From a virus (lineage: Duplodnaviria; Caudoviricetes), in IMG/VR virus record IMGVR_UViG_3300025113_000005, positions 1-59,813 of that record: a stretch of 59,813 nucleotides of DNA; one strand, given 5' to 3'. Positions 1,986-25,220 of this stretch are shown piece after piece. The number at the start of each line of letters is the position of its first letter. The stretch's first letter is position 1. The position numbers and the translations under genes were made by a program. The notes below the pieces were generated by a model that was not told the DNA's origin, did not search any database, and saw only the letters and a program-made list of their open reading frames with translations.

Positions 1986-2218
1986 ATCTGTCGATCTAGG
2001 AAGTAGCGAAGCAGCAGCTTTGCCTTCTCCCGTTCAGGAGCTGTTTGCCGCTCGTAGTTGTCCCAGTCCTTCAGGTTCTGCAGCTCTATCCGCACCTCGG
2101 TGAAGAATCGATCGTCGTGGATGCGACCCGCAAAGAAGTCCCAGGCTCCCTGCGCTGTACGCGCCATCCGTACTGGCGGGGTGATGGTGAGCGGGTTTGA
2201 CGGAAGATCTGGTGTCAT
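1982..2218 (-). CDS. hypothetical protein
   Basis: ATG 2218 overlaps the ligase stop (ATGA coupling). Confidence 0.5.
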   Translation of the reverse strand: MTPDLPSNPLTITPPVRMARTAQGAWDFFAGRIHDDRFFTEVRIELQNLKDWDNYERQTAPEREKAKLLLRYFLDRQI

Positions 2219-3252
2219 CTCTTGACAAGTCCGTTCGGAGTGAAGCGCTGCCCGGCGCGCCAGTGCTTGGTGGTCTGGACGTGGCCGGCACGCACGTACT
2301 TGGCGACGCTGCTCTTGAAGTCGGCATACCTGAAGGACCTGGCCTTGCGAACGACATAGCCCTCGCGGACGCCCCATTCGACGGTGGTCAGGTCACACTC
2401 CGCGCGGATGGCCTTCTCGTCCCAGGTGCCGCGCCAGATGACCGGCACCGGGGTGATGCCGAGCAGCTCGAAGTACTCCAGCGTCTCGTCCCATGCCAGG
2501 CACTCATTGTGTTCCGTCCAGATGCTGAAGCCGAGGAAGTAGGACGGCAGGTCCGCGTACGGAATGGAGTGTTCCGCCCACAGGTTCTCACCGCATACTC
2601 GCCAGCCGGTGGGGAGGTTGTAGCAGACGTTCTCCGACAGGAATCGCTTGACCCAGGCGCGGTCCTCGCCGCCCCGGCTGTCGATCGAGCGGGCATGCAC
2701 GTGGCCGTCGGCGTAGGCGGTGGTGTTTTCACCGTCCATCTTGACCGAGATCACGACCTCCTCACCTTCGAACTGAGCGCAGCTCTTCAGCGCCTTGTCG
2801 TCGTCATGGATGCCAGGTGACCAGGGCAGGTGGAAGGTGCGGCCGTATTTGACATACGGCACGTAGAGGCTGAGCTTGCCGCCCTTGGCTAGGATCTTCT
2901 GGACGCTCTCGTCATGGAAGAGCTCGCCGTGGGTGCGGCGTCCATCCTCGAGAATGTAGTCGCCCCACTTGGTGATCGGCTGCTCAGGATAGAACTGGTC
3001 GGGGACGTGGACCGTGTGGATGCCGGCGGCGAGGCGGACGTCCTCCACTGAGAGCTCGGTCGTCTCGCACTGTAGGTGATGCTCGGCGCAGACCGAGGCG
3101 CCGTTGTCAAGATAGTATCCGCCGTCCGGCCAGAGCCGGCGCTCAATGACATGGTGGGCATCTTGAGCAGGTTGACCGCAGAAGACGCAGCGGTGCCCGT
3201 CCCTGGAAAGAACGCCTTCCCGAAACTGGTCGCGGGTGAGAAGCTTGGCCAT
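2215..3252 (-). CDS. HNH domain fused to ATP-dependent RNA ligase-family domain
   Basis: N-terminal RDGHRCVFC..DAHHVIER..NGASVCAEHH; ligase motifs KMDGEN, GEN, YFLGF, EGYVVR, AKYVR. Confidence 0.85.
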   Translation of the reverse strand: MAKLLTRDQFREGVLSRDGHRCVFCGQPAQDAHHVIERRLWPDGGYYLDNGASVCAEHHLQCETTELSVEDVRLAAGIHTVHVPDQFYPEQPITKWGDYILEDGRRTHGELFHDESVQKILAKGGKLSLYVPYVKYGRTFHLPWSPGIHDDDKALKSCAQFEGEEVVISVKMDGENTTAYADGHVHARSIDSRGGEDRAWVKRFLSENVCYNLPTGWRVCGENLWAEHSIPYADLPSYFLGFSIWTEHNECLAWDETLEYFELLGITPVPVIWRGTWDEKAIRAECDLTTVEWGVREGYVVRKARSFRYADFKSSVAKYVRAGHVQTTKHWRAGQRFTPNGLVKR

Positions 3253-3304
3253 AGTGCATTGTATCACGGTTTTAACCATGATGCTGCCAAATATGTAACA
3301 AGGT

Positions 3305-3829
3305 CTAGGTTGTAACCTGCTTGAGTCGCTGCAGGACCTCATCGAACGTGGTCCTGCGCCAGCTTAGCTGAATGAATCGACGTGGCTTCATTGGTGGCTT
3401 GCGAACTACGCTGTGTATCTGAGATACATCAAGCAGGTACGTGTCACCGTCCGCCGCAGTAAAGGAGTCAATGAAGTCGAGGTCCTTTTCGTTCTTGTAT
3501 ATGTTGGACGTCGCCGCCCCTGGAAAGCGAATCGGAACGGCGCCTTCACGCACGTTCCAGAAGTTAGTGGTTGCGTCACCTGACTGGAAATAGCAGTTCA
3601 ACGCCGTGATGGTGGTGTGGTCGCGGTGCGGGGAAACCTGGTCGTTGCCAATGATCTCGACGTAGCGTATGGCATCAGGAAGCAGCACCCGCAGGTGCTC
3701 GAGAGGCGGTGGTTTGCCCAACACGCGGTAGTATGAGATCGCCCCGTAGGTCATGAAGTGCGCGCCCTTCCGCACCATGTTCACCAAAGAGATATCATAT
3801 GGGATCTTAGCAAACGGGGGTGACTGCAT
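3305..3829 (-). CDS. cupin/2OG-Fe(II) oxygenase-like protein
   Basis: PHRD...IHSV...R facial-triad pattern. Confidence 0.65.
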   Translation of the reverse strand: MQSPPFAKIPYDISLVNMVRKGAHFMTYGAISYYRVLGKPPPLEHLRVLLPDAIRYVEIIGNDQVSPHRDHTTITALNCYFQSGDATTNFWNVREGAVPIRFPGAATSNIYKNEKDLDFIDSFTAADGDTYLLDVSQIHSVVRKPPMKPRRFIQLSWRRTTFDEVLQRLKQVTT

Positions 3830-3863
3830 GAGGGCCGTAAATACTGCATCGACAGGGGTATTT

Positions 3864-4715
3864 ATGAGTCAGCAGATGGACATCGGTCGTGAACCTAAGA
3901 GATCCCAGATAGCAGGGCAGTGGTTCGTTGACCTGGATCAATACGTTGACACCGAGCGGTTCGAGAGGTTGCATGAGAGAATGTGCGAAGGTATCGCCCG
4001 CTCCTGGCACCTCTCAGAGCCGGTCGTCATCGGGTCTAAGGAGTCGCAGTATGATATGACCCTTAGCGAGGTGGAGTTTGCCAAAAGCGAGCACCCCGAG
4101 GATGAGACGCTGAAGAGGCTTCTCTCCTACCAACATCGCGAGGCGGCGTACCAGTATGTCAGGTTTCGCTACCCAACTATGGCGCTGGGGCGCAAGATTC
4201 TGCTGCGTACCTATGTGGACTACCACAACGGCTTCGCTCGCAAGCACCTGGCCAGGCTGAACCATGACATGCCCGCCTACTCCTACTTTCCCGAGCTGAA
4301 GCAGTTCATCAGCGACCTGCCTATCTTCAGTGAGGTTGGGCGCGTCATCATTTTTCTGACCGACGGCAACGCCAAGGCCGAGATCCACTGTGACTACGCC
4401 GACGGCAAGAGCCGTAAGGATCAGTTCCTCTGGCTGAACCCGCGTAGGGCCAAGCGGTTCTTCGTGCTTGACACCGAGTTCAATAAGCGCTATCTAACGG
4501 GGATAGCAAACACATTTGACAACGCCTCGTGGCACGGTGGGGACCCATCACCGTATGCCACGTTCACGGTGCGTATAGACGGTCGCTTCAGCCAGAAGTT
4601 CCTAGATGCCTCTAACCTGGCAGAACATTATGAGCGGCCTCGAAAGCAGGTGATCGAACCCGCTGAAGCAGGTCGCGACCTGGGTGTGCAGCTGGCCAGG
4701 CACAGCGCAGCGTGA
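3864..4715 (+). CDS. 2OG-Fe(II) oxygenase-like protein
   Basis: IHCD...WHGG...VRIDG; TAAATA at 3838-3843; GGGG RBS. Confidence 0.7.
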   Translation: MSQQMDIGREPKRSQIAGQWFVDLDQYVDTERFERLHERMCEGIARSWHLSEPVVIGSKESQYDMTLSEVEFAKSEHPEDETLKRLLSYQHREAAYQYVRFRYPTMALGRKILLRTYVDYHNGFARKHLARLNHDMPAYSYFPELKQFISDLPIFSEVGRVIIFLTDGNAKAEIHCDYADGKSRKDQFLWLNPRRAKRFFVLDTEFNKRYLTGIANTFDNASWHGGDPSPYATFTVRIDGRFSQKFLDASNLAEHYERPRKQVIEPAEAGRDLGVQLARHSAA

Positions 4716-5247
4716 CGTCATACGGCTTGGGGTGGTTACCAAAGACCGCTCGATCAAACTCACTTGTGGGCAGCTCACCTGCCTTCACCTCCCCAAATGG
4801 GTAGATCTCGAAGCGAGGCCAGATCGCAGAGGTCTTCTGAGTGCGGGACGTCGTGCGAGCCCAGGCAGTGGGTAGCGACCACAGGATATTCTGACAGTCG
4901 TAGTAGCGACCGAAGGAGATGGCGCGCAGCCACAGCGCGTCCATTCCGTTTCGCTGATAGTTCCATGGTGCCGGCACCATGGGATTGGTGACCAGAAATG
5001 ACATCAGCCAGTGGTTGGAACAACAGGCTGGAAACGTCTGAACGAGGTAGGCCACAAGCTGCTGCGCCTCATTGAACGCCATCCAGGTGACCGTGCGCTG
5101 GCTTTTCAGTGAGCCTCTTAGTGCCTCCAGCCCCCGCTCAAGTTCAGAGGAGCTGAGCTGCTGCTTACCTACCTGACGCTGTGCGGTAAAGATCTCAACG
5201 GCCAGCGGCAGCAGCTGAGAGGTCAGACGCTGGATCGTGAACTTCAT
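4612..5247 (-). CDS. putative GNAT-like acyltransferase
   Basis: LVAYLV..WLMSFLVTNP..YQRNGMDALW resembles GNAT motif A (weak). Confidence 0.45.
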   Translation of the reverse strand: MKFTIQRLTSQLLPLAVEIFTAQRQVGKQQLSSSELERGLEALRGSLKSQRTVTWMAFNEAQQLVAYLVQTFPACCSNHWLMSFLVTNPMVPAPWNYQRNGMDALWLRAISFGRYYDCQNILWSLPTAWARTTSRTQKTSAIWPRFEIYPFGEVKAGELPTSEFDRAVFGNHPKPYDVTLRCAWPAAHPGRDLLQRVRSPAFEAAHNVLPG

Positions 5248-5555
5248 TACGTGATTGAGACTGTACGGACGGTGTTGATGTCATTCCTGACATCATAGAT
5301 AGCGCGATCCGCAAAGAAGTTCGGAAGCACCTGAAACAGTTCATCCAAGAGAGTCGTAAGCTGATCCTCATCGACGTATTTGGCAACGGAGGTGTGCACC
5401 AAGCCATCCTCAGACAGGGTGAACACAGGTGGTTCAGCAAAGTTTGGTGTGTTGGAAACCAAAGAAATAAAGGTCGAGCGGACAAGCGGCACCGTGAAGA
5501 TGTAGAACGGGGTATCAGAACTTTGGCGCTGCTGGGTGGTTGTAACAGTAATCAT
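5247..5555 (-). CDS. small hypothetical protein
   Basis: overlapping start/stop with both neighbours. Confidence 0.65.
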   Translation of the reverse strand: MITVTTTQQRQSSDTPFYIFTVPLVRSTFISLVSNTPNFAEPPVFTLSEDGLVHTSVAKYVDEDQLTTLLDELFQVLPNFFADRAIYDVRNDINTVRTVSIT

Positions 5556-6361
5556 GTTGAGCTCCTACTAGGTGCGGTGGTCTTGACGGCCGTAGCCAAT
5601 CCAATCTTCTCGAGCAGCTGGATAACCAGGTAACTCACATCAAGCTCGCCGCTCCGCAGTCCAAAGCGAGCTGACCCAGGGTAGCGGTGGTGATTGTTGT
5701 GCCAGCCCTCACCAAAGACCAGGTAGCCCATGATCGGGTTGTTCTGGCTGTCATCACGCAGCGCGAAATTTCGGTAGCTTACGACGCTCTTCTTGTGGCC
5801 GAACCAGTTCAGTGCGTTGCTGACGGTGATGGAGACGAAGATCGGCAGCGCATACACGTACACAAAGGCGTTCAGACTTAGAAGAGCCAAGACCAGGCCG
5901 TAGGCTCCCAGAATGGCGAAGTAGTAGCGGTGCCACCAGGCGTAGTACCTGGTGCGAGCGATGTCACGGATGCCCTGCGTGGAGACGCGTGGGTACACGC
6001 CGAAGAACGTCTTCCACACTAAACCTGGTGGGTGCGGGTCTCCAGGTAGGTCAGCGAATCGGTGGTGCTGACGGTGGGTCATGACCCACATTATCGGAGA
6101 TCCAGTCCCAGCTAGGCAGGCGAAGGTGACGAACAGCTTCTCCACCCAGGGGTGGAACGTTACCGCCTTGTGCGTGAGGGCCCGATGATAGGTGGTGCTG
6201 ATGCCCAGACAGATCAAGCAGAAGTACGTAAACACCGACGCAGCCAACCATGGTAGTGAAAATGTGGCGTAGAGCGGCGATAGCAGAAGCGCCCCGAACA
6301 GCACCAGGTTGAAGCCCAGCAGCGTGAATGGGTTGTTTCCCTTGACGAGGTGCTTGATCAT
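5552..6361 (-). CDS. membrane fatty-acid (delta-9-like) desaturase
   Basis: His boxes HRALTH, HRQHH, GEGWHNNHH; DPH motif; transmembrane segments. Confidence 0.92.
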   Translation of the reverse strand: MIKHLVKGNNPFTLLGFNLVLFGALLLSPLYATFSLPWLAASVFTYFCLICLGISTTYHRALTHKAVTFHPWVEKLFVTFACLAGTGSPIMWVMTHRQHHRFADLPGDPHPPGLVWKTFFGVYPRVSTQGIRDIARTRYYAWWHRYYFAILGAYGLVLALLSLNAFVYVYALPIFVSITVSNALNWFGHKKSVVSYRNFALRDDSQNNPIMGYLVFGEGWHNNHHRYPGSARFGLRSGELDVSYLVIQLLEKIGLATAVKTTAPSRSST

Positions 6362-7071
6362 GCTGTATTTACGACCGACTCATAGTGCCGGCGCAGCCCG
6401 TCTTTTCCACCGTACCTGGTCTCGATGGCTGCCAGGTGCTCGTAGTAGCGATCAAAGGTGCCTGGTGCGATGTAGTTAGGGTTCTTCTTGAAGGTAGGGG
6501 CGTACTGAATGGTCCAGCGCCTATCGATTACATCTGAGATGATGTGCAGGCGGTCAGTTGTGCCAAGGTTGAAGGCCGCGTGCGGGGTGATGTTGTCAAA
6601 GTCATACAGCTGTCCAGCCTCCATCTTTACGACCTCGGCCTCGTGTGTCTCCTCGTCAAAGTACACGTGACCGCAGCGGTCGTTGGTGACCAACACGGCG
6701 TGTACCCGGTGCGAGAGCGCGTGATACAGCCGAGGGTCGATGTGCGGGTTCACCACCCGGTCAGGTACATTACGCACCACCTGGGATCGAAATACCACAT
6801 GGTTTGGGAAGTACCTGGTGGTCAGCAGGGCGTGGTACGGTGCCATGGCGGTGGCCAAGGCCTTGGACGGTAGCACCCCGCTGTAGTAGTTGTGCTGCTC
6901 GTTGAAGTAGCGGGTTTCCGCGTCGTAGCGGTTGCACGCGTCAAAGAAGGCCTCCTCCTTGGTCAGCGACTCAGGAGCCTCTAGATCCACGGCTCGAGTG
7001 ATTGTCCAAAGCTCCTCGAACAGCTGCGGTGATAGGGTGTCCAGCACCTGAATGTGAGGGCTGAGCTTCAT
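6358..7071 (-). CDS. Asp/Asn beta-hydroxylase-like 2OG-Fe(II) oxygenase
   Basis: PHID..HRVHAVLVTN..FDNITPHAAFNLGTTDRLHIISD. Confidence 0.8.
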   Translation of the reverse strand: MKLSPHIQVLDTLSPQLFEELWTITRAVDLEAPESLTKEEAFFDACNRYDAETRYFNEQHNYYSGVLPSKALATAMAPYHALLTTRYFPNHVVFRSQVVRNVPDRVVNPHIDPRLYHALSHRVHAVLVTNDRCGHVYFDEETHEAEVVKMEAGQLYDFDNITPHAAFNLGTTDRLHIISDVIDRRWTIQYAPTFKKNPNYIAPGTFDRYYEHLAAIETRYGGKDGLRRHYESVVNTA

Positions 7072-7718
7072 TTCCAGTAGTCGATCTCTGTCTGCTTGTT
7101 GCCTGCGTGGTACGTCGTGATGACGTTCACTCCCTGATCAAGTAGCGCGTATCCTTCTTCCTCAAGAAAATCGATGATGATATGTGAGCGCGGTGTAGGC
7201 CCGTTGTTGGTGGCGCGGTGCATAAACATGTTGTTGATCTCGTATGCCGTTCCTATCGCGAAGTGCTTAGAGCAGGCCCTCCGCCCAAGCATGTAGTTGT
7301 AGGTAGCGCCTGGATTGGTGATGATTGGGATGTGGACCTTATGCGAGAGGCTCTGGTAGATGTAGCTGTCGATGTGCCAGAGCAGGGTGGCCTGTGGTGG
7401 TAGGGTGGCCACCTGGACGAGTAGCGGGCAGGCGGTTGGATAGAAGCCACGCAGCCACTCCACCTGTGGCTCTACGATATCCAGCAGCTCCTGGGCTCGA
7501 TTGCCATAGGTGGCATTGTGGGTATCCACGCTGTACATCTTGATGCTCGGGTTCATGGCAATCAGCCGATGCGTTCCTATGAATACCTTCTCGCTCACGA
7601 GCGCCTGGGGTGAAAGCAGATCAAAGGCACCACGTACCGTGGAAGCCAGCTCCTCGACACCAGGTACACCGTCTAGCTGCCTAAATGGTACCTCGCGGTT
7701 CTGTTGGTACACCTTCAT
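7068..7718 (-). CDS. Asp/Asn beta-hydroxylase-like 2OG-Fe(II) oxygenase
   Basis: WHID..HKVHIPIITN..EINNMFMHRATNNGPTPRSHIIID. Confidence 0.8.
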   Translation of the reverse strand: MKVYQQNREVPFRQLDGVPGVEELASTVRGAFDLLSPQALVSEKVFIGTHRLIAMNPSIKMYSVDTHNATYGNRAQELLDIVEPQVEWLRGFYPTACPLLVQVATLPPQATLLWHIDSYIYQSLSHKVHIPIITNPGATYNYMLGRRACSKHFAIGTAYEINNMFMHRATNNGPTPRSHIIIDFLEEEGYALLDQGVNVITTYHAGNKQTEIDYWK

Positions 7719-8326
7719 CGATGCACCTTTGACACACCCTTGGTATCCTTGACGTCAACCACTAGGTGCGTACGAGCCGTATCACCGAGGTTGTCCACCA
7801 TATGGCGGTAGTTGACGTTGATCAGAAAGACGTTGTTCGCCGGCAGGTGGGTTGCCTTTTCTTCAGAGTGAAAGTGGGCCTGCTCATTTGTCTCAATGAC
7901 GATGTGCAGACGCAGAATGGTCTTGGCTGGTGACCCGTCGGTGTGCCAGTTGCTTGCCGCGCCTGGAACAAGCTGAATGAGGCGAGCGCGACAAGGCTGG
8001 AAACCAAGCTCCGTCGCCTGGCCGATAAGGCGCCGCAGCTCGTCGCTCGCTGCCTCGGTGAAGGTAAGGTGCTCAGAGCTACGGTGGTAGCCAGCTCTCG
8101 CTGCACCAAGGCTATCAAAGTAGACCTTCCCATTAGATAGTGTCTTCATGAACACGCTACCATCTACCCAGCCATCCCTGTAGCTACCTGACCGGCTCAT
8201 CACGCTCCACCCGTTGAACATCTCGCCACCAGCTTTAGGAAGCGTAGCCTCAAGCTGGCGAACATGGGCCCGCAGCGCGTCAAAGTCAGGAGCGAACAGC
8301 TCAGTGATGTTCTCGAATTGAATCAT
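7715..8326 (-). CDS. Asp/Asn beta-hydroxylase-like 2OG-Fe(II) oxygenase
   Basis: RARLIQLVPG..WHTD..RLHIVIETN..HMVDNLGDTARTHLVVD. Confidence 0.8.
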   Translation of the reverse strand: MIQFENITELFAPDFDALRAHVRQLEATLPKAGGEMFNGWSVMSRSGSYRDGWVDGSVFMKTLSNGKVYFDSLGAARAGYHRSSEHLTFTEAASDELRRLIGQATELGFQPCRARLIQLVPGAASNWHTDGSPAKTILRLHIVIETNEQAHFHSEEKATHLPANNVFLINVNYRHMVDNLGDTARTHLVVDVKDTKGVSKVHR

Positions 8327-8892
8327 ACCAGCAGCCTCCCCGGATCCGGTGTCAGGCGAAGCGTGAGCGTAATACGAAAGTCCCTGATCAGCGGGTTACA
8401 GAGCACCGAGTGAGGCTCACCGGTTCGAATGATGGTTGGACGGTCAATGCACACCCGTGTTTCTTCCTTGGCATCCAGTTTGTCCAGCCACCAGAAGGCG
8501 TGCCCGTTCTGGAGAAGCCGGCGCTGGATCTTGGTCTTCGGCGCTGAGAAGAAGTAGGTGAATGAGCCTTCGGTGTTGCGCACCGGAAGTTGAAGTCGAG
8601 CTGCTACCCCAAACATATCGTCGACATGGATGTTGTCTAGGTAGGACCCACCATGAGGACGCGCTAGAATGAAGGCTGAGTACTGGATCGTCCAGCCGTG
8701 CTTCAACAAGGCACGGGTAAGCTCAGGGACCTGCGCCTTCAGCGTCGCGATGGGATAGGTGTTCCAGAAGAAACCCGTGCCAAAGAAACCGGCACCGTCA
8801 ACTACCTCGTTCAGCTTTGGTTGAATGATGTCCCAGTTTTCAAGCTGGACGTACTTCCAGTAGAGCATGCTTGCAGGTTCAGTTGAAGCCAA
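8323..8892 (-). CDS. cupin/2OG-Fe(II) oxygenase-like protein
   Basis: IHVD..RLQLPV..PHSV..RITLTLR. Confidence 0.7.
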   Translation of the reverse strand: MASTEPASMLYWKYVQLENWDIIQPKLNEVVDGAGFFGTGFFWNTYPIATLKAQVPELTRALLKHGWTIQYSAFILARPHGGSYLDNIHVDDMFGVAARLQLPVRNTEGSFTYFFSAPKTKIQRRLLQNGHAFWWLDKLDAKEETRVCIDRPTIIRTGEPHSVLCNPLIRDFRITLTLRLTPDPGRLLV

Positions 8893-8920
8893 TGAGGTAT
8901 TTATGACGCGTAAATACCTA

Positions 8921-9919
8921 ATGCTTCCCTACACCTTGGATGACCACTTCACCTTCGGTTATGGCTCGGGGCTGTTCAACCCAGGTGAAAAATCAGTCGA
9001 TGCGCGGCTGTGGTGTGGGTATACCCGGAGCACTCGTGAACCAGGGTCATTCAAAGAGGAGTGCGTAAACACCGCTCGTTTGATCGGTGCCAGAGCAGCA
9101 GAGCTAAACCGACCTGTGTACGTCTGTCTATCTGGTGGTATGGACAGTGAGGTCGTCGTGAAGGCCTTTCTTGCTGCTGAGGTTCCATTCACGACCATTA
9201 CCTTTCGTTTCAACGGCGGCCTCAATTCCCATGAGCTACGTTTCGTAAACCGATTTGTTGCTCGTCACCAACTTAAGCATGTCTTCTTCGACATGTCCAT
9301 CCTTGATTGGATCAAATCCGATGAAGCAGCTGACATGTTTCATGGTGCGCAGGCCGCCGCCTTCAGCTTAATGCCGCACATGAAGATTCTCAGTCACGTA
9401 TGGTTCGAGCTGGGTGGTCTGCCCGTTCTTGGTAATGGGGACATCTACCTCGAGAATGGTGATGAGGGTTGGAAGTACGTCGAGCTGGAATACATGCTGA
9501 GCTGGTTTCGCCATGCCATCAGATTTCGTATTCTTGGCGCCATTGGCTTCTTTCAGTTTACGCCGGAGATAACGCTAGCCATGCTTCGTGACCCTCGTAT
9601 CGAGCGCCTTGGCCGTAACGTGGATTCATACGCCAACAAGATATACCAGACATCGAGATTTATCAAGTACAGCATCTATCGTACGCACTGGCCTGATCTT
9701 GCTATGCGCGCAAAGTACAGCGGCCAGGAGTTCGTGAAGGAAGAATACGAGGAACGAGCGGCTGAGCTACTTGCCCAGCGTTCTGATCAGTTCATCGATA
9801 AATTCCAGTTGGATTATGTCAGCTTTAGGGCCATGCTGGAACCTGACGAAACAGCTTACCTTGCAGGTGTCGCTCAACAACCTCTGCATAAGGTAGATCG
9901 AACGCCATTTGAAAGTTGA
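8921..9919 (+). CDS. PP-loop ATPase (asparagine-synthetase-like N-type ATP pyrophosphatase)
   Basis: LSGGMDSE motif; TAAATA at 8911-8916; start aligned with paralog at 10389. Confidence 0.75.
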   Translation: MLPYTLDDHFTFGYGSGLFNPGEKSVDARLWCGYTRSTREPGSFKEECVNTARLIGARAAELNRPVYVCLSGGMDSEVVVKAFLAAEVPFTTITFRFNGGLNSHELRFVNRFVARHQLKHVFFDMSILDWIKSDEAADMFHGAQAAAFSLMPHMKILSHVWFELGGLPVLGNGDIYLENGDEGWKYVELEYMLSWFRHAIRFRILGAIGFFQFTPEITLAMLRDPRIERLGRNVDSYANKIYQTSRFIKYSIYRTHWPDLAMRAKYSGQEFVKEEYEERAAELLAQRSDQFIDKFQLDYVSFRAMLEPDETAYLAGVAQQPLHKVDRTPFES

Positions 9920-10376
9920 ATCGAGGAACGCTAACTGAGTTGGTAACACCATGCAGCGCCTGAAGGTTGATGATCGCAGGCATTTCGTCCAGGTGCAGAG
10001 AAAAGCTAGGTTGCAGCTGGGCACGGGTATCCCAGAACAAAGTAGGGGCATAGCCTTCAACAGGAAATAGATGATCGATGATTGCCGTCTGTCTTGCACC
10101 GGTTGGACCATCAACATGACGCTCGAGCTCGGTATTGGGTTCGATGTACATAATGAATGGGATGAATGGCACCGTCACAATAAGTCGCAGGCGGCTGAGT
10201 TCCGGGGCCATGATGCCGAAGAACTCAGGGCGCATGCGTGACAGACCGTTGTAGTGCTTCTCAACAGATGAGATGTGCTGCTCAATGACATCATGGCGTC
10301 GAAGGAGGTAGTTCACTATTCTCTTCTTCGCAGGCTGCGGCAGCAGCGGGAAACCTAGTGACAGATATGGACGCAT
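9825..10376 (-). CDS. cupin/2OG-Fe(II) oxygenase-like protein
   Basis: RHVD..LHGVTN..RFNFQ. Confidence 0.7.
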   Translation of the reverse strand: MRPYLSLGFPLLPQPAKKRIVNYLLRRHDVIEQHISSVEKHYNGLSRMRPEFFGIMAPELSRLRLIVTVPFIPFIMYIEPNTELERHVDGPTGARQTAIIDHLFPVEGYAPTLFWDTRAQLQPSFSLHLDEMPAIINLQALHGVTNSVSVPRFNFQMAFDLPYAEVVERHLQGKLFRQVPAWP

Positions 10377-10388
10377 GAGGTATTTACT

Positions 10389-11324
10389 TTGACCACCTAC
10401 TCATACCAGAATCAACTGCAGTTCGGATACGGCCCGCAGGCGTTCAATCGTCGGGATCATGGGCTGGATCTGTGGTACAACTTCAATCGCGCTGAGCGAC
10501 AACCCATCTCATTTGTCGATGAGCTGAAGCGCACCGCTCAGGTGGTGTACGAGCAGGCACGTGCCATGGGTCGCCCCATTTACCTGCTGCTTTCTGGCGG
10601 GCTGGATAGCGCCGTTATGGTGAAGGGCTTCAAGGCCGCAGGGGTGCCTTTCAAAACTGCCACATACGTGTTCAACGATGGGCTAAACGAACATGAGATG
10701 CAGTACATACGTCCATTTGAGGCCGCTGAGAACCTCGATGCCGTTCATCTCAATATGGATATTCGAAAATGGATGCACGATGGTGAGGCGCTCGATCTCT
10801 TCCTACGTACCGATTCATGGGAAACAGGAACTCTGCCGCTGATGAAGCTCATGGGTCACGTGTGGAGCGAACTGGGTGGTCTGCCGGTGTTTGGTGGTGG
10901 TGACATCGATATAGTCCAAAAGGAGGGTGCATGGTACTACGGGCGGTATGAGAGCTTCCTTTCGCGTTACTGGTACTGTGACATCGCTGGCATCTCGGAT
11001 TTCGTGTCATTCTTCCAACATACCCCTGAGCTGACGCTTGCCATGCTTTCAGACCCGCTGATCGCGAGGGCTGCGACTGGACAGGATCAGCTGGCGAATC
11101 GAGTGCTGCGCAACCTAAAGATCGTGAAGTTCAAGGTGTATCATCGAGACTTTCCAGACCTGCAGCGACGCATCAAGTTTGGTGGCACTGAGCTCATTCA
11201 CAGCTGGCTTAGCCCACTTGAGGACAGCTGGCGCGCCAAGCGCCAGCTGAGCTATGGTGATCTTTGGATGATCCCATATGATGAGCTAATGGAGAAGCTC
11301 AGACCGCTTGGGTCAGTTTACTGA
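10389..11324 (+). CDS. PP-loop ATPase, paralog of 8921-9919
   Basis: LSGGLDSA; shares HVWxELGGLPV, FFQxTPExTLAMLxDP and KxxGxE blocks. Confidence 0.75.
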   Translation: MTTYSYQNQLQFGYGPQAFNRRDHGLDLWYNFNRAERQPISFVDELKRTAQVVYEQARAMGRPIYLLLSGGLDSAVMVKGFKAAGVPFKTATYVFNDGLNEHEMQYIRPFEAAENLDAVHLNMDIRKWMHDGEALDLFLRTDSWETGTLPLMKLMGHVWSELGGLPVFGGGDIDIVQKEGAWYYGRYESFLSRYWYCDIAGISDFVSFFQHTPELTLAMLSDPLIARAATGQDQLANRVLRNLKIVKFKVYHRDFPDLQRRIKFGGTELIHSWLSPLEDSWRAKRQLSYGDLWMIPYDELMEKLRPLGSVY

Positions 11325-11813
11325 CGACGTCGAAGGCGGATAGAGGCGCTGCTGCTGACGAGTGAGCCCCTCATTCAGCTCCTTCCACGTCTTAGGCTGC
11401 TCCATCGGTGGAGCAGATGCAGGTCGAGCTGGAGCTGTGATCACCTCGGCAGCTGGAGCTCCGCGACCGTGCGCGAGCGGCGGAGGTGGGGGCGGTGAAG
11501 CCATGGCTCTTGGAGATGGAGCTGCCAGCGGAACTGGGACTGGAATCGGCGCAGCGCCTGGTTCTAGCCCTGCGGCAACCTTGTTGCTAAGCAGAGCGAT
11601 CATCGCCTGCTGAAACCCCGCGTTCTGCGCAAGCTCGCGAGCGAGCGCCTCATTACGCGCCTCAAGCCGAGCGACGTGCTCCTTCAGCGCCGTTTCCTTG
11701 GCGTAGCGGCTGTCCAGCTGAAAGAAAAATGGAATGGCGACAACGAGAGCTGATACGACGGCAGCCGCCGTCATAGGCACACCCAACCGCTTCAGCTCAT
11801 CAAAGATGGCCAT
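11313..11813 (-). CDS. membrane-anchored coiled-coil/Pro-rich protein
   Basis: N-terminal TM helix, heptad region, polyproline tail. Confidence 0.6.
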   Translation of the reverse strand: MAIFDELKRLGVPMTAAAVVSALVVAIPFFFQLDSRYAKETALKEHVARLEARNEALARELAQNAGFQQAMIALLSNKVAAGLEPGAAPIPVPVPLAAPSPRAMASPPPPPPLAHGRGAPAAEVITAPARPASAPPMEQPKTWKELNEGLTRQQQRLYPPSTSSVN

Positions 11814-11834
11814 GACAGGTGCTCTGCGCTTAGT

Positions 11835-11933
11835 TTAGCGCTGGCAGTAGTTCTGCTTGTACGGGCACTTGTGCGCGCAGGCACCAAGAAGCAGAACGCT
11901 TACCACGGCTACGGTTGCTACGATGATTCTCAT
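11835..11933 (-). CDS. very small lipoprotein (32 aa)
   Basis: MRIIVATVAVVSVLLLGA-C lipobox; GGAGG RBS; TATAAATA at 11977-11984. Confidence 0.6.
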   Translation of the reverse strand: MRIIVATVAVVSVLLLGACAHKCPYKQNYCQR

Positions 11934-11998
11934 GGAGGCCTCCCTTTGAGCAGGCAGCACAATTGCTGCCTTGGGATATTTATACCTCGCTTCTCTGG

Positions 11999-12337
11999 TT
12001 AGACTGAGAAGCTGGAACCGCAGCCGCACTTTCCGACGGCATTCGGGTTGTTGATCACGAACTGGGCACCCATCAGCTCCTCGACGTAGTCGACAGATGT
12101 TCCTGCCAGGTACTGATGGCTCATCGAGTCAATCATCACCCTGACCCCGTCAGCGACCACAGCGACGTAGTCGTCCTCAGCGGCCGGTTCTGCGTCTAGG
12201 GTGAAGCCCTGCGTGAAGCCCGAGCAGCCACCTCCCTGCACGAAGACGCGCAGCGCCAGGTCTGGTTGTCCAGCTTCGATAAGAATCTGCTGGATCTTTG
12301 TGATGGCGTTGGGTGTGAAGGTGAGCTGCGGTTCCAT
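11999..12337 (-). CDS. erpA: A-type Fe-S cluster carrier (ErpA/IscA/HesB)
   Basis: [12 protein letters not shown]...[14 protein letters not shown]; AAGGAG RBS. Confidence 0.92.
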
Positions 12338-12347
12338 GGGGTTCTCC

Positions 12348-13277
12348 TTACAGAGGGAATAGGGCGGTGCCGCACTCGCGGCAGTGCTTGAAGCCCGAGC
12401 GGTTGGAGGTCCCACACGTCGGGCAGTCAATGCGGGTCTTGACAGTAACGGGCCTCGTGACCTTGTCCTCGCCCAGCTGACCAAGCAGCTTCAGTACCAT
12501 GACGTGCTTCTGCCCGTCGGTCGGGAACCACGCGCCGTGCTGGAACTGCTGGTTGCTCTCCGATCCCGGCACGGTGATGCCGGCGTCGCTGACCTGGTTG
12601 AAGTAGGCAGCCTGAGCGGCGTTCTGCGGAATGCCGGCAGTTCCTGAGGCAGCTGACAGCGAGGCTGAACCGAGAGACGTGCCTCTGCCCCGCGAGGCGC
12701 TTGACTTCAGCGTCGTCGATGCCGCGTTCGCGGTGGTGGTTTTGCTGTTAGATACGTCGCCAATCGAATCTGAGACACTGGTGTTGAACGAGTTAGCGGT
12801 TGAACCGAAAGCACAGTCAGTTGTCGAGCTGTACCACGGGCCTTCTCCCCAGTAGTACGGATACGGGCGGCGGCGCCAGTACTCGTCGACATACGTGCGC
12901 TTGATGGTCTCGATCTTCGCGGCCTGCTGCTCGAATTCAAACTCCACTCGGATCAGGCCATCCTCGGCCTGAATGCCGCGAGGGCCATTCTCGATGCGAG
13001 TGGTACGCTCGATGAACCGAAACCGGTTGCCGTTTGACAGGTTGCCGTTCTTGATGAACCGCTCCAGGTCGATCGACCCGTTGGCTGGCACGATCAGGCT
13101 GGTGCCCTCCGTGGCGTCCACGCCGTCAATTGAGACCCGTACAAGGGATCGCAGGGCGTTTAGGTTCTTGAAGTGGAGGGAGTACTCACTGCCAAAGGGG
13201 ATGAGGACAGTGTCGCCTTGCTCGCGTAGGACGCGGCCATTGTGCTTGACGGCGCAGACAAGCTTTTGCTGATACAT
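12348..13277 (-). CDS. hypothetical protein with C-terminal zinc ribbon
   Basis: CPTCG..CRECG; TATAAATA at 13369-13376. Confidence 0.7.
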
Positions 13278-13376
13278 CACGTATCTTCCTTTCCCAACAT
13301 CTTGAAACCGGTCACCCACTAAGACCGCGAAGTTAGCCAGTTACGGCAGTGGAGTTGCGTTGGTAGACTATTTATA

Positions 13377-13910
13377 TCACACTGCGCCAGCGAGATCAGG
13401 ATACTTGTCAGGTTGCTTCACCAAGAAGATCAGGTTTACCTTGACAGGCCGCCTCTCCAGATCAGATTGCTGGCGCCACCACTTCAGGTGGTTGTCCCAT
13501 CCGATAACTCCATCGACTACCTTGGTGTGCACCGCCTCAGCGCTGTCGCTCGGTTCAAACACCTCTTTGCGAAGCCCGTTGTCGCGAAGCGCGGTGACCT
13601 GGTGACCTGACTGTACCAGCCCATGAGCCCAGCGGCTGAGCGCCTTCAGCAACCCAGTCGCGCGTCGGTCAGTCGATAGAAGAGTGGAAGGCCCTGAGGC
13701 CCGCACGATGAGGTCGCCGCCGATGTGGGCCACGCCTGTGTTGTACTTGCTGAAGGTTTCTGGTTTGATGGTACCACCGAACTTGTTCACGATGCCGTTG
13801 AACTCCTTGCGCAGCTCCTTGCGCCAGTAGTCAGGCGCCTCCTTGTCCTTGGCTCGCTCCTCTGGCGAGCGGCGCACCTGCTTCTGTTCAATGAGCTCTG
13901 CTGTCTTCAC
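13377..13910 (-). CDS. paralog family A late protein
   Basis: MKTAELIE; RRATGLLKALSRW..GHQV. Confidence 0.65.
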   Translation of the reverse strand: MKTAELIEQKQVRRSPEERAKDKEAPDYWRKELRKEFNGIVNKFGGTIKPETFSKYNTGVAHIGGDLIVRASGPSTLLSTDRRATGLLKALSRWAHGLVQSGHQVTALRDNGLRKEVFEPSDSAEAVHTKVVDGVIGWDNHLKWWRQQSDLERRPVKVNLIFLVKQPDKYPDLAGAV

Positions 13911-14449
13911 TTCGACGCCTTCACGACGCGCAGCTGCCGTGGTTTCGGCGGCTCCTCAGCTGGCTTCTCTACCTTCGGCTCATCAAGGCCGTACTGGAAG
14001 ATGATGGTGTAGCCACCAGCGCTGCTGTTGTTGATGTAGAGCTTGTCACTGACACGGTTCTCGATGTAGGCCAGCGTGTCATCGGGGTAGATGGTCTTTG
14101 GGACGGCGTCCTGCAGCTGGTGGTACGCGCCCTTCCAGTAGCCACCAGGCGGAAACTGCCCTAGCCACCGAATGTCGTAGGTGACGACCTCGCGGCCCCG
14201 CTCCTTGTGGTCATGCAGGTGCTTAGCTACCGCCTTCTGCATGGCAGCCACCCGCTTCCCCAGCCGTAGCGCCAGCTCGCCCTTCTCGACGTCCTTCAGC
14301 TCCCCGCCGAAGGTCCAGCGGTCCTTCACCTGCACTGGCTTCTTGCGGTGGGCCAAGCCGTAGCGCTTGGCGAGCGCACGAAAGGCGTCGTCCTCCTCCT
14401 TCACCCAGTCAGGGAGGGCCTTGGCCTCAAGCAGCTCATGCGTTTTCAT
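13907..14449 (-). CDS. paralog family A late protein
   Basis: MKTHELLE; WTFGGEL..KRVAAMQKAVAKHL..GREV. Confidence 0.65.
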   Translation of the reverse strand: MKTHELLEAKALPDWVKEEDDAFRALAKRYGLAHRKKPVQVKDRWTFGGELKDVEKGELALRLGKRVAAMQKAVAKHLHDHKERGREVVTYDIRWLGQFPPGGYWKGAYHQLQDAVPKTIYPDDTLAYIENRVSDKLYINNSSAGGYTIIFQYGLDEPKVEKPAEEPPKPRQLRVVKASK

Positions 14450-15264
14450 GGCATCTGCACCCTAAGGATGATGTTGCCCTTCACCCCCTGCACCAGCTTT
14501 GTCAGCAGGTGGTCCTTGAATACCTGCTCAAAGGAGGCAGGATCCTCTATCTGCTGAACGGTGCCCTTGTTAGTAGCCAACGAGAGGACCATGCCTTGTC
14601 GAAAGAGGTCATCGAGCAGCTCACCCATCTGATGGGCGAAGCGGGTAACGCGGGCCTTCATAGGAGCTATCTGATCCTCTTCGTTCTTGGGTGGCATGAC
14701 CCGTAGCGACATCATCAAGGAGCGAGCGTCCTCATGCGGGACCTTCACCTGTGAAACCGGATCTAGATCGAGACCTAGCTGAGTCGCCAGCTCCTGTGCC
14801 TTCTCGAGGTGGGCATCCAGCACCTGGATGGGGGCCTGCTGCGCTTCCTCGAGCTGCTTTGGTCTAGAGGCGTGCAGCGCTACTGGGAGGATCCACTGTG
14901 CGATGCCGCGCTTGAGTCCCTTTGCCATCTCACGAGCCAGCTCAGTGGGGGTAGCTCCGCTGTGCAGCTGATGGGTGACAGCTCCACCGACCATGGCCGA
15001 GAAGTCGGCTCCCTTCAGCTCGCTGAAGAGGTAGGTGGCCAGCTGCCGGCAGGCAAGCTCAAACAGCTTCTGCGGCCCAAGCAGGTGCTCGTCAGCCGTT
15101 GCTCGTAAGGCCTTCAGCATGAAGGACATCAAGACCACCTCGCCGTTGGCCGTCTGCTGAACCGATGGTGAGCTGCTGTCCCATTCCAGCGTTAGGCCTG
15201 CCTTGCGCGCGATGTCCTGCAGGCGGTCCATCTGGTCGAAGCTGAAGGGCTGCTTAGATGGCAC
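14446..15264 (-). CDS. paralog family A protein, probably two domains
   Basis: internal KQLEEA; both halves have a IA/LA-xxxGLxL motif. Confidence 0.6.
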   Translation of the reverse strand: MPSKQPFSFDQMDRLQDIARKAGLTLEWDSSSPSVQQTANGEVVLMSFMLKALRATADEHLLGPQKLFELACRQLATYLFSELKGADFSAMVGGAVTHQLHSGATPTELAREMAKGLKRGIAQWILPVALHASRPKQLEEAQQAPIQVLDAHLEKAQELATQLGLDLDPVSQVKVPHEDARSLMMSLRVMPPKNEEDQIAPMKARVTRFAHQMGELLDDLFRQGMVLSLATNKGTVQQIEDPASFEQVFKDHLLTKLVQGVKGNIILRVQMP

Positions 15265-16099
15265 CGTGCTTCCTTAGGAAGGGCTCGATGGTGGTGAAGG
15301 GAATGACCTTGGTGCCCTTCGGCACGATGCGCGTCTTCTTGATCCCCATCCATGTGTTGGATAGATTAGGAATGTCAGCTCGCTTGGAGTCGCTTTCCAT
15401 GTGTCCCAGGTCGTGGTCAACTGCCCAGCCCAGCAGGTCTCGGACGAAGTCCGCGTAGCGCTTAGACAGGGTGGTGCCCTGTCCAGCGACGTACTTCTTC
15501 TCCTTCTGCAGCGTGTTGAGCCACTTGATGACCTGCTTGATCTGCTTCTCGTCCTCAGGAAGCGAGACCAGGAAGTTGGCGCGGGCACCGTCTTTGTACT
15601 CACGGTACGCCCCACCGCCAAAGCTCAGCAGGTCGGTGACCTTGACTGAAGGATCAGCGCCCACAAACCAGGCGATGGTCGGGATCTGCTCCTTGTAGCG
15701 CACGTTTCCAGGGGGCCAAGCGATGAGGGCGTGCTTCACGAGCTGCTCCTCCACCTGTCCTTGAACAGCGTCCTCCTGGTGCTTGCTGCGCTCGGCCTTG
15801 GCGGCGATCTTCACCGCGCGGCCGCTGGCCATGAGCTCCTCAAGCTTCTTGGCCAGCGCCTTGAGGAAGCCCTTGCGGCGAGCGGCAATGCCAAGCACCG
15901 ACTCCTCGTCGCTCTTACCGCGGTGAGAGCCAAGTCCGCCGCCGTACCACGCACCGTCCTTGGCGATCTGTGGCCAACCCATGCCCGCGACCAGCGTCAT
16001 GTCGAACTTCTTCGCGAGGTCCTTGAACTCGAGGTTGAGCTTCTTAGAGGACGAGAAGTGGGTTTCGTCCTCTTCATAGAGGAGCTGATGGACCTTCAT
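15254..16099 (-). CDS. paralog family A late protein
   Basis: MKVHQLLYEE; WYGGGL..ARRKGFLKALAKKL..GRAV. Confidence 0.65.
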   Translation of the reverse strand: MKVHQLLYEEDETHFSSSKKLNLEFKDLAKKFDMTLVAGMGWPQIAKDGAWYGGGLGSHRGKSDEESVLGIAARRKGFLKALAKKLEELMASGRAVKIAAKAERSKHQEDAVQGQVEEQLVKHALIAWPPGNVRYKEQIPTIAWFVGADPSVKVTDLLSFGGGAYREYKDGARANFLVSLPEDEKQIKQVIKWLNTLQKEKKYVAGQGTTLSKRYADFVRDLLGWAVDHDLGHMESDSKRADIPNLSNTWMGIKKTRIVPKGTKVIPFTTIEPFLRKHGAI

Positions 16100-16590
16100 T
16101 TGTTGGGTGCCTCCTTGACAGGTAGAGCGGTAACGTGCCAAAAGATGCGCTGGGCGGGGTGACCGATACGCAGGAGGTCCTCAGTCGTCACTCGACTCAG
16201 TAGGTCGTCGGCGATGCTACCTGGTGACGAGCGCTTTATCCGATCAAAGAGCAGCGGGCTGGATGCCAGCCCGAAGTCGCCGGTGACCCGTATCTCATGA
16301 CCCTGTTCACTCAGCTGCTCCAGCGATTTGCCGAGGGCCTTGAGAAAGCCCTTCGTTCTGGCTGAAAGGCTCACCAACCGGTCAGCTTCCTTCTTGAAAC
16401 CACCACGGGGAAGCAGCAGACCACCGTACCAGGTACCTGCCTTGCGGGTAAGGGGGAAGCCGCTTGAGGCGTTCTTTCCCGATCCGTCGATGGTCAGTTC
16501 GTAGGGAGAGGCAGCGAGGTCGCGCCACTTCGCCATCTGCTGCTTGACCTCATCTGGTGCCGGCGCTTCGAGGAGCTGGCGTATCTTCAT
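16096..16590 (-). CDS. paralog family A late protein
   Basis: MKIRQLLE; WYGGLL..ARTKGFLKALGKSL..GHEI; TAAATA at 16615-16620. Confidence 0.65.
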   Translation of the reverse strand: MKIRQLLEAPAPDEVKQQMAKWRDLAASPYELTIDGSGKNASSGFPLTRKAGTWYGGLLLPRGGFKKEADRLVSLSARTKGFLKALGKSLEQLSEQGHEIRVTGDFGLASSPLLFDRIKRSSPGSIADDLLSRVTTEDLLRIGHPAQRIFWHVTALPVKEAPNK

Positions 16591-16613
16591 GTGTAATAGC
16601 CCGTGTCAACAGG

Positions 16614-17051
16614 CTATTTACTGAGGATGGACTCAATGGTCTCCACAAACCGGACACGGACGCGCGGTGGGTTGGGTGAGGTCTCGTACTCCTCGACAAG
16701 CTGCTCCACGGTCAGAGGTGCTGGGTCGATGTGCAACCGCGGCAGGTTGTTCTTGGCCGCGTCTCTGTAGACCACGGTAACGCGGCGCCTGTGGGTCTCT
16801 GCGATCTGCTGCAGTCCTTTGGCAAGGCGCAGCAGAAAGCCGCGGGCTCGCAGCTTGAAGGGCAGCGGTGGATCCGGCGGGAAGGCGTCCTCAATCGTGA
16901 AGATGAGGTGCTCCTCCTTCAGGAAGGTGGTGTGGCTGAGCGTCGAGTCCGACTGGACCTTGACCTTCACGTCAAAGTAGATGCAGGCATCCGCCAGCGC
17001 CTGCTCTATCAAGGTAGGGCTGCTGAGGAAGGTGTCAGTTACGACAGCCAT
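16614..17051 (-). CDS. divergent family A-like protein
   Basis: LRARGFLLRLAKGL. Confidence 0.55.
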   Translation of the reverse strand: MAVVTDTFLSSPTLIEQALADACIYFDVKVKVQSDSTLSHTTFLKEEHLIFTIEDAFPPDPPLPFKLRARGFLLRLAKGLQQIAETHRRRVTVVYRDAAKNNLPRLHIDPAPLTVEQLVEEYETSPNPPRVRVRFVETIESILSK

Positions 17052-24391: not shown

Positions 24392-24432
24392 GGAGTCTCC
24401 TGACAGTTGCTAACAGTCGCTATTTAGGATCT

Positions 24433-24777: not shown

Positions 24778-24778
24778 T

Positions 24779-25198: not shown

Positions 25199-25220
25199 TT
25201 ACCTTCTCCTTCCGTTCTGG

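Follow-up and report, generated by a model that had tools for sequence, protein, structure and literature searches.

A conserved, reshuffled gene module of large phages that may make or edit an amide-linked, hydroxylated amino-acid-derived compound

Within a viral record from IMG/VR (IMGVR_UViG_3300025113_000005, 59,813 bases, the whole of which is here called the window), positions 3305–11324 hold twelve open reading frames (ORFs), A to L, that include two PP-loop adenylating enzymes (J and L), seven candidate oxygenases (A, B, F, G, H, I and K), a membrane desaturase (E) and two further proteins (C and D) (Table 1). Is such a block the outcome of chance assembly? It is not; it is a real module, and with moderate confidence it can be read as one copy of a module, conserved among large uncultured phages and constantly reshuffled, for building or editing a hydroxylated amino-acid derivative with an amide linkage. 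That product would quite possibly bear a fatty-acyl chain, i.e., be a lipoamino acid or aminolipid, and would be made inside the infected cell. An earlier sequence-only reading of this DNA had proposed a dedicated multi-enzyme pathway, and that proposal is upheld by the coupling of seven of the genes and by the spacing, 0.7–3.6 kilobases (kb), at which the families concerned are found in records of 178–382 kb.

A query made from an alignment of the L family retrieved 29 viral loci, 22 of them with a substantial relative (23–36% identity), while the other seven, which have only a 43-residue PP-loop stretch in common, served as a rough control. Searches of viral contigs with L alone, with K or with C gave no usable relatives, and a scan of metagenome contigs found three distant loci (L037–L039). 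When the twelve window proteins were compared by phmmer with what lies within 10 kb of the PP-loop gene, a desaturase or a relative of F, G and H (here termed AspH-like) was present in 19 of the 22 loci, a desaturase in 9 and an AspH-like gene in 14, with relatives of A, B and I in one, two and one of them respectively; none of the seven control loci has any such relative. Scattering of homologs without co-occurrence, which had been named beforehand as the outcome that would tell against a pathway, is thus not what is seen. Clustering of the ORFs of the window's first 16 kb with those of 14 loci placed AspH-like genes in 12 of the 15 sources and desaturases in 10. Position in whole records is a stronger test than counts of loci. 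In a genome of 382 kb that is rated 100% complete (G001) the sole AspH-like and the sole PP-loop genes are 1.8 kb apart, and in one of 330 kb (G002) the distance is 1.7 kb. A 178 kb record (G003) has two separate pairs of PP-loop and AspH-like genes, one spaced by 3.6 kb and the other by 0.7 kb, and a desaturase lies 1 kb from the latter; in the record behind locus L003 (G005) a PP-loop gene, two AspH-like genes and seven desaturases lie inside 17 kb. As an observation on that last record, positions 8125–17547 hold seven tandem PF00487 genes, then a gene for an acyl carrier protein (ACP; 16782–16976), then an AspH-like gene, all at most 13 kb from the PP-loop gene.

Four families are together on contigs spanning 33% to 59% GC, and homologs of A are on contigs whose lengths, 25,938 and 40,535, match those of contigs with homologs of L. 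Homologs of B adjoin PP-loop and desaturase genes in loci L003 and L004. A 10.7 kb contig (33% GC) from a metagenome-assembled genome of Pseudobdellovibrionaceae, which may be either cellular or viral, has a PP-loop gene accompanied by an acetyltransferase, three desaturases and an AspH-like gene that matches H at 3.6e-30. The association with acyltransferases extends to fusion. Among 16 longer-than-usual PP-loop relatives, hand-picked from the best 150 of 1186 representatives, a GNAT domain is above the Pfam cut-off in three (P0080, P0116, P0163) and below it in three more, and can be fused at either the N- or the C-terminus; one of the 16 has a methyltransferase domain and two are tandem PP-loop duplications. 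(P0156, P0075 and P0096 are listed beside the three just named as fused or duplicated relatives of J and L.) The same GNAT family is free-standing near PP-loop genes in L008, L010 and L015. G003 and G004 each have one copy of it, at 0.9 and 5.6 kb respectively from the PP-loop gene, and G001, G002 and G005 have none. The window, L002 and L004 share the flanking gene families f30–f32, and the island, as the local cluster can be called, seems to occupy one genomic position with contents that differ among related phages. The expansion in family copy number across phages suggests variants of one chemistry acting on varied substrates.

Other neighbours of the islands include B12-type and other radical S-adenosylmethionine (SAM) enzymes. 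A family of about 400 residues with an invariant SGGxDS and no Pfam match (f4, in L005–L008, L014, L018 and L022) is a second PP-loop family, and one with an invariant HxD...H, likewise without a Pfam match (f9, in L002 and L004–L006), is another oxygenase-like family. In the set L019–L023, L008 and L022 the PP-loop gene in some cases overlaps a saccharopine-dehydrogenase-like gene, and S-adenosylmethionine decarboxylase and TctC-type binding proteins are also encoded; these neighbours are hints of polyamine or tricarboxylate substrates.

Are all twelve ORFs genes? They were confirmed at the coordinates of Table 1, and a codon model, for which 18 confidently called genes of the window were the training set, gives them scores of 0.24–0.51 (C 0.24, K 0.25, D 0.27), whereas 10 alternative or overlapping ORFs do not exceed 0.03; on that gap the twelve are taken to be real. 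Five ATGA stop/start overlaps link I, H, G, F, E and D on the minus strand, and a TAATG overlap links D to C, so that I-H-G-F-E-D-C constitute one translationally coupled chain of seven genes; A, B, J, K and L are five single units outside it. A/B, I/J and K/L are divergent pairs, and B/C and J/K are convergent, each of the latter two overlapping by about 100 nucleotides (nt).

That the block has two paralogous SGGxDS enzymes was called correctly, J and L being 36.7% identical over 313 amino acids (aa; E 4e-71). The J ORF opens at 8867, and alignment A1 together with TAAATAcctaATG makes 8921 its likely start. J matches PF00733 with 23.5 bits, against a cut-off of 21, over residues 81–144 only, and L has no Pfam match; S69, G70, G71, D73, S74 and G169–D172 are invariant in the L-family alignment. 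A model of L from AlphaFold2 (AF2; predicted local distance difference test, pLDDT, 90.5) has as its leading VIA matches the synthetase domain of human ASNS (9b6c) and of E. coli AsnB (1ct9), at Z 15.3–16.2 with 259–262 residues aligned, followed by beta-lactam synthetase (Z 13.4–14.1), carbapenam synthetase (12.2–12.9) and TsnB9 (11.3), with NAD synthetase and LarE (about 10) and TilS (8.8) lower. With AsnB/ASNS at 15–16 so far above TilS, a TilS or QueC identity for J and L was rejected. Sequence identity of L to its AsnB-type structural matches is 10–17%, and its profile, run by sequence against the PDB, found none of the AsnB or lactam-synthetase enzymes, TilS being the best match (E 0.19). 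The likeness of J and L to AsnB, ASNS, beta-lactam synthetase, carbapenam synthetase and TsnB9 is one of SGGxDS plus the whole synthetase-domain fold, 242–262 residues. L differs from AsnB in being 311 aa rather than about 500. No N-terminal nucleophile (Ntn) glutaminase domain with its catalytic Cys is found in J or L, and the L model aligns from AsnB residue 73 or later, with only some 35 residues preceding the synthetase domain. With the glutaminase domain missing, the nucleophile used by J and L would not come from glutamine. They are not to be filed as AsnB, and should, on the model, work like its synthetase half; fold and PP-loop together indicate that they should adenylate a carboxylate and form an amide or a lactam. 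Of the amide or thio transfer that had been put forward for PP-loop enzymes here, the AsnB-type fold retains the amide and parts with the thio transfer.

The family to which L belongs is small. A word-indexed search gave 18 proteins, L included, the nearest relatives being 48–66% identical and on contigs of up to 383 kb, and an exhaustive profile search among 1.84 billion gave 1186 representatives at E≤0.001, 675 at 1e-10 and 116 at 1e-30, most of them of about 300 aa. The best viral structural matches of L are uncharacterised proteins of uncultured phages (best template modelling, TM, score 0.85).

Could PP-loop enzymes and oxygenases instead be modifying tRNAs of the phage or bases of DNA, as enzymes like TilS, QueC, ThiI or TET/AlkB do? 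The PP-loop superfamily has many base-modifying enzymes, J has weak matches to QueC and MnmA (1e-4 to 1e-3), TilS is the top sequence match of the L profile just mentioned, and the window has 29 tRNA genes, an RNA ligase, a CCA/poly(A)-polymerase-type enzyme and an RNA-repair HAD domain. In addition, the substrate of Cpz10, the solved relative of F, G and H considered below, contains uridine (PMC9814697). However, the L model is closest to AsnB/ASNS over about 260 residues whereas similarity to QueC and TilS is confined to 60–70 residues around the PP-loop, neither a membrane desaturase nor an ACP has a role in nucleic-acid chemistry, and no family of tRNA-guanine transglycosylases (DpdA type) came up when the window was scanned with Pfam. 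Nucleic-acid modification is accordingly considered very improbable.

For the oxygenases, the earlier count of seven HxD...H proteins is secure for F, G and H, from PF05118 or paralogy, and for A, from its model, and less firm for B, I and K. The gathering cut-off of PF05118 (Asp_Arg_Hydrox) is 22.6 bits, which F (30.4 bits, 4.3e-7) and H (38.6 bits, 1.3e-9) exceed; G, at 19.9 bits, is below it and is tied by BLASTP to F (3e-11) and to H (4.5e-8). In an alignment of these three with ten relatives from other viral loci, the HxD, a distal His and an Arg ten residues later are invariant in all 13 sequences (H128, D130, H175 and R185 in H numbering), and only a few other positions are conserved. 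In Cpz10 the counterpart of this Arg is R170, which is changed in the R170A mutant (7v4o). Compared with all solved structures, the F/G/H profile finds Cpz10 (7v4f) at 1.8e-19 and L-proline cis-4-hydroxylase (4p7w) at 1.6e-15, and proline 3-hydroxylase (1e5r), at 1.3e-3, is also ahead of human AspH, which is at 0.026–0.089 (AspH chains, 0.026–0.44). The substrate that Cpz10 hydroxylates in the making of caprazamycin is an aminoacyl-glycyluridine, and free methionine is oxygenated by it as well (PMC9814697). What F, G and H have in common with Cpz10 and proline cis-4-hydroxylase is the HxD...H and, in the case of Cpz10, the counterpart of R170 (PMC9814697); the identity is low, the substrate-binding N-terminal halves are unrelated and variable, and, unlike the caprazamycin pathway, no nucleoside-antibiotic pathway genes are near F, G and H. 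By that profile F, G and H, whose nearest solved relatives are these two enzymes, do not group with AspH proper. 'Asp/Asn-hydroxylase-like', the description previously given to three of the proteins, is therefore right as a family name, PF05118, and misleading as a hint of substrate, because Cpz10 and the proline hydroxylases outrank AspH.

The AF2 model of A (pLDDT 90.9) has the 2-oxoglutarate (2OG) oxygenase fold, its best VIA matches, at Z 9.7–10.2, all being 2OG oxygenases (6n1f, AspH at 10.0, Cpz10 at 9.8, ALKBH6, and proline 3-hydroxylase at 9.7), and H68, D70, H139 and R150 are invariant in the 12 sequences of A and its 11 relatives. B, I and K are probable oxygenases, K being the weakest of the seven. 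B has no Pfam match, and an ESM Atlas feature score of 0.96–0.97 to Asp/Asn/Pro hydroxylase clusters, one of them 81% PF05118. I is linked by hhalign (probability 90%, E 1.4e-6) to the cupin-like neighbour family f3, and to the AspH-like profile at E 0.0014 with motifs in register. In K the HVD...H...R is in register with the A and AspH-like families at non-significant values (E 0.08–0.13), a further in-register alignment, also not significant, has E 0.011, and a single homolog of it (75% identity) was found among 5.8 billion proteins. With E as high as 10 allowed, an iterated hidden Markov model (HMM) of F, G and H recruited none of the other four, A, B, I and K. Comparison of the AspH-like profile by hhalign with A (E 0.036) and with B (E 0.11) was uninformative, alignment A3 against A2 giving E 0.036, and A5 against K giving nothing. 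In sum, 8 kb of DNA encode seven candidate oxygenases that fall into three or more sequence families.

One use for hydroxylases of this kind, together with a desaturase, would be the remodelling of lipid A or lipopolysaccharide, LpxO and OlsC being members of PF05118. The window does encode envelope enzymes, namely a GT2 glycosyltransferase, a polysaccharide deacetylase and a DD-carboxypeptidase. However, F, G and H have no hydrophobic segment, their nearest solved relatives use soluble amino-acid-type substrates, and the cluster gave no match to a lipid A or Kdo family, and this role has, in our estimation, hardly any probability.

E is, by its sequence, a membrane desaturase of the stearoyl-CoA desaturase (SCD) type, and the His-box desaturase noted earlier thus holds good. 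It matches PF00487 at 9.2e-18 (65.4 bits against a cut-off of 29.7) and the mouse and human SCD1 structures 4ymk/4zyo at 5.5e-7, and its three His boxes, HRALTH, HRQHH and HNNHH, align with HRLWSH, HRAHH and HNYHH of SCD1. With hydrophobic segments at 11–57, 76–94 and 146–184, it is the sole one of the twelve proteins to have such segments. With the DesA equivalog of NCBIfam it scores 93.4, where 400 is required, and it is not put forward as an ortholog. D, the 102-aa orphan of the sequence-only reading, remains one, with no family match and a weak hhalign link (E 0.003) to the small-protein family f10 of L003, L008, L014 and L018. D as an ACP was rejected, as a PF00550 search of the window, taken to E 1, came back empty, and D as electron donor for E was dropped, as it has no Cys and a single His. 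C has no Pfam match at E up to 5. Comparison of C by hhalign with the GNAT family of the islands gives E 0.0034 at a probability of only 9.5% over 70 columns, with a WSLP motif in common, and its Atlas model is poor (pLDDT 0.38), with TM 0.40–0.44 to GNATs.

What might these enzymes make together? J and L would each activate a carboxylate as an acyl-adenylate at SGGxDS (ATP to AMP and pyrophosphate), which would be resolved by free ammonia, another amine or an intramolecular amine to yield an amide or lactam. The cupin oxygenases would hydroxylate unactivated carbons of an amino-acid-like scaffold, as do Cpz10 and the proline hydroxylases, while C, if it is a GNAT, would N-acylate an amine, and E would put a double bond into the acyl chain. 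The simplest product that uses all the enzymes is an N-acylated, hydroxylated amino acid amide, be it a lipoamino acid, an aminolipid or a related small amide, and readings of this kind have about an even chance of being right. In aminolipid synthesis of the ornithine-lipid type, a GNAT-fold N-acyltransferase of OlsB type acts along with hydroxylases of OlsC/LpxO type. Aminolipid tailoring resembles what is proposed here in having an acyltransferase fold, a PF05118 hydroxylase and a membrane di-iron enzyme at work on an N-acylated amino acid; the likeness to OlsB, OlsA and OlsE is one of enzyme classes, and not of proteins known to be homologous, C being a mere candidate GNAT. No aminolipid pathway is known to include an AsnB-type amide synthetase. 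A bolder version, to which we would give a small though real chance, is a virus-specific natural-product pathway of large phages of water and groundwater, in which a glutaminase-less AsnB-like synthetase, GNAT, hydroxylases and desaturases would yield, in the course of infection, a new class of hydroxylated, amide-capped lipoamino acid or of lactam-type antimetabolite.

A number of observations pull away from a common pathway with such a product. The counts of loci are not independent, because many of the loci come from few related phage lineages. Linkage of the desaturase is inconstant, with none in G001 and the nearest in G002 some 45 kb away, and in G004 four AspH-like genes are 9–38 kb from the PP-loop gene. 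An ACP is present in only one of 10 other records and not in the window. C is no more than a possible GNAT, and no protein of the window matches an HMM of the island GNAT family with E as high as 1 allowed. The product and substrate are predictions, from sequence and fold. In addition, A, B, J, K and L, as single units, could have independent functions. Is the block then a hyperplastic accessory island of unrelated oxygen-dependent auxiliary metabolic genes (AMGs), each acting alone on host metabolism, with the desaturase, for instance, controlling membrane fluidity as has been proposed for cyanophage desaturases? Island content and copy number do differ in every locus, of the single-gene units all but L are each preceded by a TAAATA box (a motif treated below), the rest of the window is a mixture of accessory enzymes, and phage desaturases are reported as stand-alone AMGs (PMC5776448). 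Hard to square with separate functions, however, are the coupling of seven genes via overlapping stop and start codons, the recurrence of PP-loop/AspH pairs twice in one record and at 1.7–1.8 kb in genomes of 330–382 kb, the joining of GNAT and PP-loop in one polypeptide, and the same four families on contigs of 33% to 59% GC. The absence of a common pathway is thus thought unlikely.

Two further observations that count against a small-molecule product favour protein or peptide modification. The oxygenases would then add hydroxyl groups to side chains, and the AsnB-like enzymes would turn Asp or Glu carboxylates into amides or rings (compare lasso-peptide cyclases), on a peptide made by the ribosome, on proteins of the host or on those of the virion or tail fibre. 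The top Foldseek matches of the A model are the ribosomal-protein hydroxylases NO66, MINA53 and YcfD, which fits a protein substrate, and Mtd_N tail-fibre-like proteins are encoded beside the module in several other loci (representatives of family f5). PF05118 itself is named for protein Asp/Asn hydroxylase, J has a weak macrolactam-cyclase match in NCBIfam (0.055), and Iyer et al. argued in 2010 that dioxygenase arrays of bacteria and phages act on peptides in secondary metabolism (PMC2938197). Set against this, the F/G/H profile is far nearer to small-molecule hydroxylases (1.8e-19 and 1.6e-15) than to AspH (0.03–0.09), a membrane acyl desaturase is within the same translationally coupled chain, an ACP is in one island (G005), and the virion link is one of adjacency in other phages, with none in the window. 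A Pfam scan of the twelve ORFs found no transglutaminase-like protease, PqqD/RRE or precursor-like family, and by that scan the block lacks the marks of a lasso peptide or other ribosomally synthesized and post-translationally modified peptide, short unannotated precursor ORFs not having been searched for. Modification of proteins or peptides therefore comes out as rather unlikely. The substrates earlier guessed at, virion proteins and lipid A, are less favoured because the kin of F, G and H act on free or nucleoside-bound amino acids and J and L are of AsnB type, and an amino-acid-derived small molecule or aminolipid is favoured in their stead.

Table 1. Genes and TAAATA elements of the block, with positions in the window
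Feature	Positions	Strand	Description
A	3305..3829	-	174-aa Fe(II)/2OG-type double-stranded beta-helix (DSBH) oxygenase; own transcription unit
Inverted TAAATA pair	3838..3864		Between A and B
B	3864..4715	+	283-aa probable Asp/Asn/Pro-hydroxylase-like oxygenase; divergent from A
C	4612..5247	-	211-aa protein, possibly GNAT-like acyltransferase; last gene of the chain
D	5247..5555	-	102-aa soluble protein, no family assigned
E	5552..6361	-	269-aa membrane di-iron desaturase, stearoyl-CoA/DesC (putative delta-9) type
F	6358..7071	-	237-aa PF05118 Fe(II)/2OG hydroxylase
TAAATA box	6366..6371	-	Within 3' end of F, 4 nt ahead of E start codon
G	7068..7718	-	216-aa PF05118-like hydroxylase; F paralog
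H	7715..8326	-	203-aa PF05118 Fe(II)/2OG hydroxylase
I	8323..8892	-	189-aa divergent cupin-type oxygenase; first gene of the chain; start codon TTG
Inverted TAAATA pair	8898..8916		Between I and J
J	8921..9919	+	PP-loop adenylating enzyme (AsnB synthetase-domain type), ~332 aa; SGGMDS
K	9825..10376	-	183-aa probable cupin-type oxygenase; divergent from L
TAAATA box	10381..10386	-	4 nt ahead of K start codon
L	10389..11324	+	311-aa PP-loop adenylating enzyme (AsnB synthetase-domain type), without glutaminase domain; SGGLDS

The hexamer TAAATA, located by the sequence-only reading exactly where it occurs in the block (3838, 3859, 6366, 8898, 8911 and 10381), is present 29 times in the window against an expectation of 3.37 ± 1.75, with a maximum of 8 in 100 shuffles, i.e., an enrichment of about 9-fold. 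Of these, 26 are on the minus strand, the main coding strand, and nearly all are just upstream of start codons. The distance from box to start is 4 nt before the ATG of E, K and J (with its start at 8921), 5 nt before the TTG of I, 20 nt for B and 29 nt for A; L has no box on its own strand. Often the form is caTAAATAcc, strand-matched to the genes (e.g., at 1008, 6366, 8898, 8911, 10381, 41237, 44621 and 48598), and many boxes end 3–5 nt ahead of the start codon. From its sequence context TAAATA looks like the phage's own promoter element, and genes whose start codon it adjoins may have leaderless mRNAs. The late type ascribed to the boxes by the sequence-only reading is conjectural; the late box of T4 is TATAAATA.

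As to the phage itself, CheckV puts completeness of the record at 26%, which implies a whole genome of roughly 230 kb; GC is about 59%. The single sequencing run that contains the stretch is a DNA run of a groundwater metagenome, which may be its source, and the virus is probably an uncultured groundwater giant phage. At 2215–3342 on the minus strand an HNH endonuclease motif is fused ahead of an RNA ligase domain (PF09414, phrog_24030), and related genes, some 54–55% identical to it, are present in the jumbo phages Salicola phage SCTP-2, the Caulobacter CcrBL9 group and Ralstonia RsoM2USA. Against 50,697 GenBank phage records neither megablast of the whole region 3305–11324 nor tblastn of L and of H gave a match. 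Outside the cluster the window carries accessory enzymes, including NADAR and a non-specific endonuclease. Positions 22983–39623 are a run of envelope enzymes, with lysozyme, GH16, polysaccharide deacetylase, GT2 glycosyltransferase, GNAT and DD-carboxypeptidase, and the CCA/poly(A)-polymerase-type enzyme and RNA-repair HAD domain are there too; the true GNAT gene is at 37145–37654. The tRNA genes are all on the minus strand at 50039–59678 and include three for tRNA-Met(CAT), one for tRNA-Ile(TAT) and, at 53323–53397, one with anticodon CTA (tRNA-Pyl according to ARAGORN) that is a possible amber suppressor. Among them, at 56259–56834 on the minus strand and so outside the cluster, is a 2OG-Fe(II) oxygenase (PF13640, 9.7e-12). 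The ErpA Fe-S carrier previously remarked on as nearby is indeed encoded, as an A-type carrier at 11999–12484 on the minus strand (PF01521, 6.7e-17), and the functional link that might be drawn from it is weak: the gene recurs in one of the 29 loci, the syntenic relative L002, which also has radical SAM genes, and it is not counted in the module. Its ORF has a 49-residue N-terminal extension rich in Arg, Ala, Ser and Pro, with the conserved part beginning at an internal Met (about 12337), and a start there, which is the likely one, abolishes the overlap with the next gene.

How much of this is already known from other phages? Ten tandem dioxygenases were described in Synechococcus phage Syn9 by Iyer, Abhiman, de Souza and Aravind in 2010, and an array of that type was proposed to serve in tailoring of secondary metabolites or peptides (PMC2938197). 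The present block is like it in having several distinct families of Fe(II)/2OG-type DSBH oxygenases within a few kb of phage DNA, the likeness being one of array layout as described. The Syn9 array is described together with tryptophan halogenases, whereas Pfam scans found no halogenase in the cluster here, and the 2010 paper names neither PP-loop nor asparagine-synthetase-type enzymes, whereas here there are two AsnB-type synthetases, a desaturase and a possible GNAT. Lipid desaturases encoded by cyanophages were reported in 2017 and are reportedly treated there as stand-alone AMGs (PMC5776448), whereas E is coupled to hydroxylase genes and to the small protein D. AspH-type genes are among the core genes of pelagimyophages, where genes for stearoyl-CoA desaturase and radical SAM enzymes are also found (PMC7029224). 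A search of the literature for the combination of AsnB-like enzyme, GNAT, desaturase and hydroxylase found no description of it.

Phage auxiliary genes have mostly been seen as single enzymes borrowed from hosts, and a multi-enzyme set that is nearly confined to phages points to phage-specific chemistry. If the bolder natural-product version is true, the compound would serve to alter the membrane of the host or to target rival cells or phages, and the pathway would be the phage's own, with no borrowed host gene. Identification of the product would give functions to several large families of phage 'hypothetical proteins' and would help explain why aquatic phages carry many dioxygenases, a puzzle in print since 2010; among the possible yields are new lipids or antimetabolites and new amide-forming biocatalysts.

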